From Candidatus Poribacteria bacterium (GTDB taxonomy: Bacteria > Poribacteria > WGA-4E > JAJDTR01): DNA of 64,000 nucleotides. Position numbers and translations under genes: made by a program. The notes beneath the pieces are model-generated. The model had not been told where the DNA came from. It saw only the letters and a list, made by a program, of their open reading frames with translations, and did no database searches. This document shows positions 6,611 to 24,133 of the stretch, in pieces; positions within the stretch are counted from its first letter, which is position 1, and every line of letters begins with the position of its first letter. The DNA is taken from contig CBDCTK010000002.1 of the NCBI GenBank assembly GCA_965222225.1, forward strand, positions 5,280,001 through 5,344,000, written 5' to 3'.

Positions 6611-6938
6611 GCGATAGAGATCCCCTGCACACCAGCCTTTGCCAAAACGACAGGAATACACTTCGTGACCCTCAAGTTAACTCAAGTTGCTACCTATTCC
6701 GGTAGGTTGGCCTTCCAGCCCGACCCACGATCAAACGAGCGAGTAGCGAGTAGCGAGTAGCGAGTGCGATAGAGATCTTCACAGGTTGTATGGCATAAGA
6801 AACCGCTAGATTTTGTACATTTGTAGGGTGGGCGCCGCCCAGCATTTCTTGTAGCGTGCGCACGACGATTAAATGAGCGAATAGCGAACAGGATTTCCTA
6901 TCGCCCTCCCTATCCGGTCGGTTGATCGATAGAAATCC
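6611..6938 (+). repeat. Intergenic mosaic of GTAG-REPs and hypervariable cassettes, including one inverted nested copy
   Basis: 3' fragment 6611-6623; copy 6729-6778; REP 6815-6841; outer copy 6867-6938 interrupted by a minus-strand copy 6891-6927. Confidence 0.85.
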
Positions 6939-21942: not shown

Positions 21943-22025
21943 GGTCAAGCGACTGAATAAGGAGTGCGATAGTAGATCCTGATAGAGATCCCAGTGCGAT
22001 AGCTAATCCAGCGCGATGAGTTCCC
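21943..22025 (+). repeat. Hypervariable cassette plus stacked 3' remnants
   Basis: GGTCAAGCGACTGAATAAGGAGTGCGATAGTAGATCC t GATAGAGATCC c AGTGCGATAGCTAATCC. Confidence 0.85.
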
Positions 22026-22294
22026 TTCTAACCCGATCCCTGAACGAAATCATGATATAAAAATTGCAATACAACCCTCGAAGGAACGTTTCCCACGATT
22101 TCCGATAGGTGACGACCTGAGCTCGGTACGAGTCATTTTATCATGGCGCCGTAGCGTAAACCAACTCCATCTTGGCTATAAGGTAATCATCTAACGATCG
22201 CAATGGATCTATTCACCATCCGGCCCGGACGCGCGACGAATAGCGCTTCTACGAACCGGCGGCGATGATCGCGCATGAATATCAACCGTGCCCG

Positions 22295-23320
22295 CTACGC
22301 ATTCCCTTTCCGATAAAAATCCTTAAACGCTTTAATGAGCGTGTAAATATCGTCTCTGCTGACATCCAAGTGAATTGTCAGGCGGATTGATGTGCCTCCT
22401 GATATCAGAATGCCTCTATTCTTCATAAATTCTGACAGTGCCGCTGAATCGGAATCGGTAACCCCAATATATACCATGTTCGTCTGCGTAGGCGGGTAAT
22501 TAACGATAACCTCGTCAATTTCATTGAGCCCGTCTGCCAAAAGGGCGGCGTTCACATGATCTTCCTCAAGCCTGTCAACCTGCTTCGTTAGTGCAAAAAT
22601 ACCCGCTGCCGCCAGTATCCCAGCTTGCCTCATACCGCCGCCGAGAACTTTACGCCAGCGGCGTGCCTCCTTTATTACATCGGTCGTCGCGCAGAGCACC
22701 GATCCGACAGGAGCGCCCAACCCCTTTGAAAGACAGAATGAGACGGAATCGAAATTGCACGCGATTTCATTGACGGGAACCCTCTGCTTCACGGCAGCGT
22801 TGAACACGCGAGCGCCGTCAAGATGGAGTTTCAGATTCCGCTCTTGTGTAAACTTTCGCGCCTTGCGAAGATAGTCGAGAGGTAGAGCAATCCCGGCCCG
22901 CGTGTTCTCCAGACACAATAACTTAGTTCGAGCGTAGTGGAAATTGTCGGGTTTGATGGCGTTATCAACCGCGTCCAAATCCAGCGTGCCGTCGGAATCG
23001 AAATCTAGAGGTTGCGGCTGGATGCTGCCCAACACCGCCGCGCCGCCTCCTTCTGCCTTGTAGGTGTGGGCATCCTGTCCGACGACGTATTCATCACCCC
23101 GCTGACAATGTGACATTATCCCCAATAAGTTACTCTGCGTGCCGCTGGTGGCGAATACGGCTGCTTCCATCCCCATGGTTTCCGCCGCGAGTTCCTCCAG
23201 ACGGTTGACCGTTGGATCTTCGCCAAGAACATCATCACCGAGTTCTGCGGCCGCTATCGCCGCGGTCATACCCTCTGTAGGTCTAGTGGCTGTATCACTC
23301 CTCAGATCAATGACTTTCAT
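22295..23320 (-). CDS. ltaE: Low-specificity L-threonine aldolase
   Basis: IDLRSDT, GDDVLGEDPT, SGTQSN, HLDGAR, CLSKGLGAPVGS, GGGMRQAG. Confidence 0.95.
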   Translation of the reverse strand: MKVIDLRSDTATRPTEGMTAAIAAAELGDDVLGEDPTVNRLEELAAETMGMEAAVFATSGTQSNLLGIMSHCQRGDEYVVGQDAHTYKAEGGGAAVLGSIQPQPLDFDSDGTLDLDAVDNAIKPDNFHYARTKLLCLENTRAGIALPLDYLRKARKFTQERNLKLHLDGARVFNAAVKQRVPVNEIACNFDSVSFCLSKGLGAPVGSVLCATTDVIKEARRWRKVLGGGMRQAGILAAAGIFALTKQVDRLEEDHVNAALLADGLNEIDEVIVNYPPTQTNMVYIGVTDSDSAALSEFMKNRGILISGGTSIRLTIHLDVSRDDIYTLIKAFKDFYRKGNA

Positions 23321-23490
23321 GATTTTCCTCAATGGTGTAGAACTTTGGCAATTGACGGTGCAAAGCCTGGTCGTTTGGAAATTCAACGCGAAGAACACAT
23401 CAATCGCTGCAGATCTTAATTATACCATTTCGCTTGAATAACAGTGCATATGATGCCTAAATTATATCATTCACTTTCTCCGTAAGCGGG

Positions 23491-23635
23491 GATCAAGCGA
23501 GCGATTAAGTGAGTGGACAATGAACGATCAAACGACTGAAAAAGGAGTGCGATAGTAGACCCTGATAGAGATCCTTTATGGAGTACGATAGTAAATCCCA
23601 CAAAGGACATGAATAGTGACTGCGATGGAGATTCC
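23491..23635 (+). repeat. Four-level nested cassette cluster
   Basis: Three GAT(C/T)AA starts and four ATCC-type ends that parse as nested insertions. Confidence 0.85.
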
Positions 23636-23929
23636 ATAGAAACACCGTTAGGCATGTCTTCTGTAGGGGCGATCTCGCAATCGCGACCTTCCCCGCTCCA
23701 GCGGAAATCAGGGGATTGTCAATCGCACCTTGAGATACTAGCGCGACGGCCTCATCACAGTGTTCTGAGAATCACGATGAGGTCTTCGTGTCTTGCACTC
23801 CCGGAGGAGTGCTATGTTAGTAGAAAGTAGGCCTTCCCTTCTCGCGCTCCAGCGGAGCGGCATGTATATCCTTCGATTGGCGAGCACGCAGGTTCGGTGT
23901 AATTGCTCCAACGATTCTCGGCTATGGGG

Positions 23930-23993
23930 GATCAATCGAGCGGTAAGTGACCGATCAACTGAGCGAACAGCGAAGGCGATAGAGATCCTATTC
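23930..23993 (+). repeat. Nested cassette pair
   Basis: Outer GATCAATCGAGCGGTAAGTGACC followed by a full copy at 23953-23988. Confidence 0.85.
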
Positions 23994-24133
23994 AGACAAT
24001 TACCGAAATACCCCTGCCTTATACCTCATTCTTTTAGGGAATAGACCACCAAGTTAAGAATTTTGCGACGGAAATCCCACCAATACTTGACGAACTCTCT
24101 TAAATTAATCCCTATGCCAACAATATTACCCCT

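Follow-up and report, generated by a model that had tools for sequence, protein, structure and literature searches.

Small dispersed repeats (SDRs) are reportedly very short elements of 21–27 nucleotides (nt), said to have been described by Elhai et al. in 2008 as SDR1–8 of Nostoc punctiforme and its relatives. The present analysis concerns a non-coding cassette of 37–38 nt, which forms an array at positions 23491–23635 of a 64,000-nt stretch of Candidatus Poribacteria bacterium DNA (assembly GCA_965222225.1, contig CBDCTK010000002.1, positions 5,280,001–5,344,000, forward strand). This whole stretch is hereafter called the window, and all coordinates refer to it unless a contig is named. The SDRs would be the closest analogue of the cassette, as their behaviour appears to be of the same kind. 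The array is probably a pile-up of a mobile element that inserts into hairpin repeats, copies of itself included. To our knowledge, the mobility of tiny non-coding repeats free of transposon ends has been an open question since the SDR description of 2008, and we know of no enzyme that moves elements this tiny.

SDRs are understood to share several properties with the cassette: both are tiny dispersed repeats without coding capacity for which no transposase is known, both show a common hairpin with compensatory changes, and in both, members are nested in one another, lie within further repeats and adjoin tandem heptamers. The cassette is the longer of the two. According to a later account, SDR5 may insert into HIP1, which gives it a short specific target motif as in the cassette, and no SDR was found outside the Nostocaceae, whereas the host studied here belongs to the Poribacteria (PMC5861425). 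Compared by description only, the cassette further differs in having four covarying dinucleotide slots within an otherwise invariant frame. For the cassette, the substitution of 2–3 bases of the target and an association with GC skew were also measured here.

The repetitive extragenic palindromic (REP) sequences, the bacterial interspersed mosaic elements (BIMEs) and the REPIN-RAYT systems were compared as a second class (Bertels and Rainey 2011, PMC3116915; Di Nocera et al. 2013, PMC3733652; PMC6006769). The cassette resembles them as a short extragenic hairpin repeat with hundreds of copies in a genome that encodes Y1/HUH proteins, and recognition as a single strand is plausible. In contrast to these repeats, it carries no GTAG/CGTC tag and no long palindrome, and presents a GATCAA start, an ATCC(C/T) end and only 2+2 bp of pairing. 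Furthermore, it is not the flanking repeat of a RAYT-like gene but lies inside that repeat, and its distribution (genome groups g1, g2 and g4 only) follows none of the Y1 genes that were searched. REPs are known targets of other mobile DNA, and the cassette acts like a parasite of REPs and not like one of them.

The combination of terminal inverted repeats and target-site duplication that characterises a DDE-type miniature inverted-repeat transposable element was not found, duplication being absent at the cassette junctions. The DHE and RPE modules of organelles, Rickettsia and giant viruses are understood to be alike in being tiny hairpin modules with base-exact edges and self-insertion. Their sequences and hosts are unrelated to those of the cassette, and they often lie in-frame within genes, whereas 52 of 710 cassette copies lay mostly inside crude gene calls and 658 lay outside them.

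Cassette frame and nesting across the genome

The genome that contains the window (G000) comprises 5.70 Mb in 2 contigs, has a G+C content of 50% and is 94.9% complete. The unit template derived genome-wide was GATCAA-NN-GA-NN-GRATA-NN-GA-NN-GCGATAG-N2-3-ATCC(C/T), in which the four variable dinucleotides are the slots s1 to s4. Strict use of this template returned 619 uninterrupted (simple) cassettes, and looser matching returned 724, with the loop reading GAATA in 319 and GGATA in 207. The core pattern had 650 matches in the genome while the reversed pattern had none, which excludes chance.

The slots covary as a small hairpin, in which two 2-bp stems, separated by a tandem GA/GA mismatch, are closed by the GRATA loop. 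Full pairing was observed between s1 and s4 in 665 and between s2 and s3 in 684 of the 724 copies, compared with just 100–220 for the other slot combinations, which served as a control. Across 109 distinct copies taken from the window and other genomes, standard pairs filled 95.9% of the cells against 63.4% after shuffling, and changes on both sides were seen in 169 cells against 28.8, with all 4 pairs affected; slid partner columns gave 24–59% standard pairs. The wobble was confined to one strand, as G.T/T.G occurred 251 times and A.C/C.A 28 times among 2476 pair cells (∼9:1). A total of 18 cassette columns were invariant across genomes. A known RNA family was ruled out by empty Rfam scans, which gave no match at the gathering score in the window and none at E up to 1 in positions 23300–24100.

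One cassette of the window, at 6729–6779, had its centre replaced by ∼3.7 extra tandem heptamers (AGCGAGT), around which the head and the tail (GCGATAG-AG-ATCTT) were both intact.

Nesting was analysed by recursive excision, in which complete cassettes were marked, the template was matched across the mark, and the procedure was repeated by rounds. This yielded 92 same-strand nests beyond the 619 simple copies, of which 85 were second-level and 7 third-level; when opposite-strand inserts were allowed, the nested cassettes numbered 97 + 8. The net loss of template at the 92 junctions was 2 nt in 55 cases and 3 nt in 32, and the remaining five junctions lost 0, 1, 1, 4 and 4 bases. With any gap permitted, 92 of the 619 copies had flanks that rejoined into a cassette, and 80 of these rejoined copies lacked 2–3 bases. 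Exchanging the flanks among the same 92 loci gave a mean of 31.3 (sd 4.1, maximum 43 in 500 trials). The expectation of the original prediction that excision would restore cassettes short of 2–3 nt more often than a control was therefore borne out. The same behaviour was found in other Poribacteria records (102 loci, 815 kb), where 162 simple and 26 nested cassettes were identified and 25 of the 26 junctions had lost 2–3 nt, gaps of up to 8 being allowed.

The interrupted copies retained their pairing across the insert. The split outer copies paired s2 with s3 in 25 of 27 cases (13.4 for shuffled partners, maximum 21 in 2000 trials) and s1 with s4 in 31 of 44 (shuffled mean 20.5, maximum 28). 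Pairing of s1 with s4 was kept in 80 of 85 inner copies and 72 of 92 outer copies (p=0.0025), and the loop, head and tail features of inner and outer copies were alike. There is modest support for the outer copies being older than the inner ones.

The breaks fell at five places of the template. Most lay before GCGATAG (template position p=23), where 46 inserts were on the same strand and 13 on the opposite one, followed by the position before the loop (p=12) with 16, the 3' GA with 11, and breaks after the loop with 7 and 9. The cassette offers insertion sites on either side of its loop, at the 3' GA, directly ahead of GCGATAG and in its own first bases. In the head-clipped class, a cassette is followed by one or two C and then by a cassette without its first two bases (5 strict cases); direct abutment on another cassette whose head was intact was found in 0 of 5.

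Target sites and distribution

A paralogous empty site, defined by the 12-base flanks without the cassette, was found for 190 of 663 copies. Within the 81 unique sites with clean edges, the replaced stretch measured 1 base in 12%, 2 bases in 36% and 3 bases in 32%, and its first base was G in 93%. The base before this G was C in 62% and G in 26%, the next one outward was G in 54%, and the next was A or T in 88%. The cassette accordingly substitutes 2–3 bases at (A/T)GC^G, and no target duplication was observed at any junction class. An orthologous site behind a Y1 gene was filled in G000, G001 and G005 and empty in G002, G004 and G009, as well as in the more distant G012 and G018.

The targets included at least five unrelated hairpin repeats, several of them GTAG-tagged, which were entered within or next to the loop, or else at the 3' foot. 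A repeated flank was present on at least one side of 577 of the 618 top-level copies. The insertion target is this short site in or beside hairpins, and not the cassette as such. The cassette had been proposed as its own preferred target, and this holds to the extent that 105 of 724 cassettes lay inside another one, opposite-strand inserts counted, whereas cassettes make up ∼2% of the non-genic DNA (by arithmetic, with a coding fraction of 0.785 from crude gene calls); several unrelated REP-like repeats, however, were hit in like manner. A simple code by which the slots would guide the choice of target was not found: each slot was compared with each flank dinucleotide for identity and complementarity, the maximum z was 4.0 in 144 tests, and no position had more than 79 matches among 568 events.

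A further array of the window, at 21944–22030, exemplifies the arrays with surplus tails and occupies the loop of a hairpin of the REP-like kind (ATCGGG...CCCGAT). It consists of one complete cassette with a head short of one base, followed by 3–4 stacked tails and no stacked heads.

The exact core pattern was counted in 31 genomes of the order, G000 included. Copy numbers were 367–1011 in the nine further members of the genus (g1), 123–150 in the four genomes of g4, a genus from a different family, and 2 in one g2 genome, while the other 16 of the 31 genomes contained none. When prokaryotes were scanned with one genome for each species (at least 102 stretches), the 80 loci listed all belonged to Candidatus Poribacteria. 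A cyanobacterial origin of the DNA was rejected: the HIP1 octamer was not enriched (120 sites), and the matches listed were all from Candidatus Poribacteria. Searches of the published literature, supplements excluded, found no mention of the 13-base motif of the cassette and, among the papers listed, none of such repeats in Poribacteria.

The array at 23491–23635

The array spans 145 bases of a 735-base spacer between two minus-strand genes, and all of its parts described below are on the plus strand. It is preceded at 23417–23490 by the left arm of a host repeat of ∼80 nt, ending in ...CCGTAAGCGGG, with copies of 85–94% identity in the genome and the genus. Elsewhere, this ending is one arm of a cassette-receiving hairpin (GCGGGG...CCCCGC) of which both filled and empty copies were found; the right arm of the hairpin appears to be absent after the array. 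The host repeat also holds a promoter-like stretch (TTGAAT...TAAATT) and a terminal hairpin of the GTAG type, which is a favoured target of the cassette, and its copies of 85–94% identity occur in every genome of the genus.

The five pieces into which the nest had been parsed by eye were all recovered where they had been placed, and each matched the template at every fixed position. A5' (23491–23502) covers template positions 1–12, with GC in both s1 and s2 and 8/8 fixed positions, and is broken before the loop. B5' (23503–23525) covers positions 1–23 with 15/15 fixed positions, starts with the head variant GATTAA, includes the whole hairpin and is broken before GCGATAG. The innermost cassette, C, occupies 23526–23563 (core to 23555) and is uninterrupted; it has the loop GAAAA, the tail TAG-ACCC, a trailing T and 22/22 fixed positions, and was missed by the strict genome-wide parser because ACCC departs from ATCC. 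It is followed by B3' (23564–23575), which reads GATAG-AG-ATCC(T), has 5/5 fixed positions and has lost the GC of GCGATAG. A3' (23576–23599, that is to 23591 plus tail) starts at loop position 3 (TTA), continues as TG-GA-GT-ACGATAG-TAA-ATCC(C) and has 12/12 fixed positions.

D, a head-clipped resident copy, occupies 23600–23635 with 18/19 fixed positions when one extra slot-2 base is allowed. Four nested cassettes had originally been proposed for the array. The nest A5'[B5'[C]B3']A3' stood, while D was found to lie outside it. D had also been described as lacking only its first bases; the first 2–3 bases are indeed absent, but it differs further in the extra slot-2 base, in GATGG instead of GATAG and in its ATTCC tail. 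From the sequence alone, positions 23636–23646 (ATAG-AA-ACACC) may be a further tail remnant.

Resumption 2–3 nt past each break was confirmed, as B and A each resume 2 bases later, with B having lost the GC and A the first two loop bases. This count of two includes the single C/T after ATCC with the inserted copy. The break of B belongs to the commonest class genome-wide and that of A to the next, and the junction class of B (p=23, 2 bases lost) had 19 cases in the strict same-strand parse. The slot pairs were standard in 4/4 for C, formed in 4/4 for B with one G.T, and formed in 2/2 between s1 and s4 for D. In A, the s1:s4 pairs were formed in 2/2 but those of s2:s3 (GC versus TG) in 0/2, and it is therefore uncertain that A5' and A3' derive from one cassette.

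The likely order of insertion is D, A, B and C. D would have been the resident copy, A would have replaced the first bases of D, B would have entered A before its loop, and C would have entered B before GCGATAG. A locus had been expected to record an ordered series of events. The sequential nesting supports this, although the record is incomplete, since deletions erode arrays and nests may be inherited whole.

A second small array was found in the same spacer at 23930–23989 on the plus strand, where a 23-nt head-part is followed by a complete cassette (23953–23989) with no outer tail. The orthologous array was absent from the same spacer in 8 relatives. In these relatives (L104–L111), the spacer (23399–24133 in the window) carries an extra reverse-strand gene of ∼1.2 kb, and G000 has repeats in its place.

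Routes of insertion and competing explanations

The orientation of the cassettes followed the GC skew. The plus-strand copies numbered 263 where C exceeds G and 125 otherwise, and the minus-strand copies 219 where G exceeds C and 103 otherwise. The effect was present within each class of flanking-gene direction, and gene direction itself was without effect on orientation (132 versus 108 between plus-strand genes, 108 versus 81 between minus-strand genes). The 41 copies with unique flanks displayed the same bias (28 versus 13, 68%). As the orientation follows the skew and wobble is tolerated on one strand only, a single-stranded, replication-linked step may take part in the insertion. The skew of contig C2 of G000 flips every ∼0.5–1.5 Mb and not once, and the cassette orientation flips as well; either many inversions or assembly joins would give such a pattern.

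The mobile-element reading can be outlined as follows. A fresh copy enters at (A/T)GC^G in or beside a hairpin, replacing 2–3 bases and duplicating none. Since the cassette carries several such sites of its own, later copies enter earlier ones and give rise to nests and clipped tandems. The arrays would later be trimmed by deletion between adjacent heads or tails. The moving or recognised form may be the single GATCAA strand, and insertion may be coupled to replication. A protein encoded elsewhere would read the hairpin, because the 2+2 bp are not stable alone. In its most detailed version, in which a replication-coupled, hairpin-read single strand substitutes 2–3 bases, subfamilies choose their sites and the element is a hyper-parasite of REP/RAYT, the account is speculative and, as a whole, improbable.

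The Y1/HUH single-strand DNA enzymes are the leading candidate class, because 5 Y1_Tnp matches were found in the genome while the IS110-type and TnpB-type families had no match and the sole RVT_1 match (27.5 bits, in a genome 94.9% complete) was AbiA-like. This assignment is tentative, somewhat less likely than its negation within the mobile-element reading, and it implicates no particular gene. The miniature relatives of IS200/IS605 elements resemble the cassette in lacking target duplication and in inserting beside a short conserved sequence, the left flank of the cassette being (A/T)GC on the 81 unique sites, and IS200/IS605 is understood to share a recognised hairpin and an orientation tied to replication direction. 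It is also understood to have two subterminal hairpins, whereas the cassette has a single central one, and the cassette loses 2–3 target bases at 87 of the 92 nested junctions and at most empty sites.

Cassettes were found on both sides of two Y1 genes. The idea that a RAYT has the cassette for its cognate repeat was nevertheless rejected, as in the relatives another repeat, GCCCCAGNGGGGCGACAGGTG, flanks the Y1 gene and the cassettes are inserted within it. At 12 loci of G000 and its relatives, the Y1 gene was flanked by non-cassette hairpin repeats, mostly of the GCCCCAGNGGGGC type, and cassettes appeared only as inserts within the flanking repeat and only in some genomes. Identification of an enzyme by co-occurrence was also attempted with three Y1 proteins across the 31 genomes, and none tracked the cassette distribution. 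Y1_a also occurred in g3, g6 and g9, and no match to it was seen in 2 of the 4 g4 genomes; Y1_b was present in 3 and Y1_d in 7 of the 9 other g1 genomes (E≤1e-10), mostly as distant paralogues. An autonomous parent bounded by cassette ends was not found in a non-exhaustive search.

Several features of these genes were noted separately. The gene at G000:C2:3080255–3080728 (L113/L119) encodes a 157-aa RAYT-like Y1/HUH protein and has inverted GCCCCAGNGGGGCGACAGGTG flanks here and in most relatives, which is the classical REPIN-RAYT layout; the flanking repeats contain cassettes in some genomes only. The 247-aa Y1_Tnp protein at G000:C2:2563965–2564705 (L131) is 99% identical to that of G005 (L132), while the flanking housekeeping DNA is ∼87–88% identical, which suggests a recent transfer or a mobile gene. 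The Y1_Tnp gene at G000:C2:3088937–3089269 (L115) contains an in-frame TAG and has inverted GTAG-tagged flanks (GTAGGAGCGATCTCC...GGTCGCGA); one copy of its flanking repeat bears a nested cassette pair in opposite orientations.

The following observations weigh against the reading of the cassette as a hairpin-read mobile element. Nearest-neighbour folding gave −0.4 to −3.1 kcal/mol, with a stable hairpin on neither strand, and the folding energy was no better than that of shuffles in 4 of 6 folds. The C-rich strand carried the G.T-tolerant hairpin in 482 of 710 copies. The active strand of IS200/IS605 is the lagging-strand template (the G-rich strand), and the hairpin strand of the cassette is mostly the opposite one, the leading-strand template; moreover, the transposition reactions known for Y1 enzymes leave the bases of the target in place. 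No enzyme could be tied to the cassette, the flanked Y1 gene being bordered by GCCCCAGNGGGGCGACAGGTG in all relatives and the co-occurrence profiles being negative. With 577 of 618 copies in repeated DNA, the host repeats may supply part of both the copy number and the strand bias. The unpaired s2:s3 slots of A and a genome-wide surplus of tails, which simple nesting does not predict, are to be added; head-tail-tail arrays numbered 94 and head-head-tail arrays 34.

The best surviving alternative is an RNA route, which we regard as unlikely. A short transcript of the GATCAA strand would be reverse-transcribed at a nick or a nascent end, and staggered processing of the second strand would drop 2–3 target bases. 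The one-strand wobble of the G.U type (251 versus 28) is what an RNA would tolerate, and a small target loss without duplication resembles the 2-bp deletions that are known at R2 insertions. The first replaced base, G in 93%, equals the first base of the cassette, as in microhomology at a 5' junction, the surplus 3' tails fit 5'-truncated copies, and a sense strand on the leading-strand template fits priming by the nascent strand, as known for endonuclease-free group II introns. RNA-library contigs span the array, with a coverage that shows neither transcription, strand nor ends. On the other side, the mobile-element type of reverse transcriptase expected of a target-primed retroelement was not found in the genome, as the only match scored 254.8 bits against PADLOC AbiA and is a defence enzyme of that type. 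The cassette has neither its own promoter nor an A-tail, and in the 619 full copies the 5' and 3' ends are equally sharp. The AbiA-type enzyme is a 670-aa protein encoded at G000:C2:4499560–4501572 (L118 514–2526, minus strand).

A composite spread is less probable still. Here, units of outer plus inner cassette, or of host repeat plus cassette, would be copied whole, so that no local order of events would exist. Copies of the CT-subfamily (s1=CT) accounted for 15 of the 16 nests at p=12, always with s2=AC in the outer copy, compared with 15 of 76 elsewhere (p=3e-8), a preference that either repeated targeting or composite spread would give. The most frequent 30-nt core, with 40 copies, was located mostly, as judged by eye, at one position of one REP-like repeat, and the high share of copies in repeated flanks is also what whole-unit copying would produce. 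Yet the full texts of outer plus inner copies were distinct in 92 of 92 cases, and a coarser level still left 89 distinct combinations, none occurring more than 4 times. Unrelated flanks surround the p=12 composites, which also vary in the outer s1:s4, loop and spacer; uninterrupted copies of the outer subfamilies exist, 11 and 8 for the two commonest cores; and the A/B/C combination is not among the recurrent ones. The recurrent inner and outer combinations indicate that a nest could be inherited as one unit.

An origin of the arrays in which no insertion takes place, and modular heads and tails are rearranged by replication slippage or unequal recombination, is very unlikely. In a strain comparison of four runs, restricted to assembled contigs, a 60-base block at 23564–23623 on the plus strand (B3', A3' and D5') was skipped in one X1 and one X16 contig of related strains; the joint, 23563->23624, lies between two similar tails, and 3 bases fit both sides. 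The head pattern had 1406 matches against 95 when reversed and the loose tail pattern 4488 against 2926, and 103 of the 245 arrays with at least 4 modules were balanced and well nested. Deletion between neighbouring heads or tails, or 5'-truncated insertion, would explain the surplus tails. The difference bounded by similar tails, the unbalanced counts of heads and tails in many arrays and the tandem heptamers in one window cassette are what slippage would leave behind. Inner copies with the same slot values as the outer ones had been named as the mark of local slippage, and identical s1 and s2 were found in 0 of 92 inner/outer pairs against a random expectation of 4.1%; local slippage is therefore not the source of the nests. 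The constant 2–3 nt register of the junctions, the empty sites in unrelated repeats and at the orthologous site, and the lack of abutment on intact heads (0/5) argue in the same direction.

That the copies are functional sites, such as protein-binding or RNA regulatory modules spread by host selection, is the least credible explanation, for although the 18 invariant columns, the location of 658 of 710 copies outside crude gene calls and a covarying hairpin that is too weak alone and suggests a protein partner could be read in this way, the orientation is indifferent to neighbouring genes, related genomes contain 2–1011 copies with none in 16 of 31, the copies interrupt each other and other repeats, and Rfam gave no match at E up to 1.

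The cassette family represents an unusually clean data set for the mobility of tiny repeats, with an invariant frame, slot barcodes, base-exact edges and hundreds of filled and empty pairs, to which a fixed junction rule and a replication-strand bias are added. Its range from 0 to ∼1000 copies across related genomes allows gene-presence profiling. Such repeats mark differences between strains, and short-read assemblies of sponge symbionts are probably broken up by them. If insertion by a substituting single strand is true, the reaction would be one that is undescribed for any transposase, and the targeting would be encoded by the element itself, as in the entry of CT-type copies into AC-type loops.

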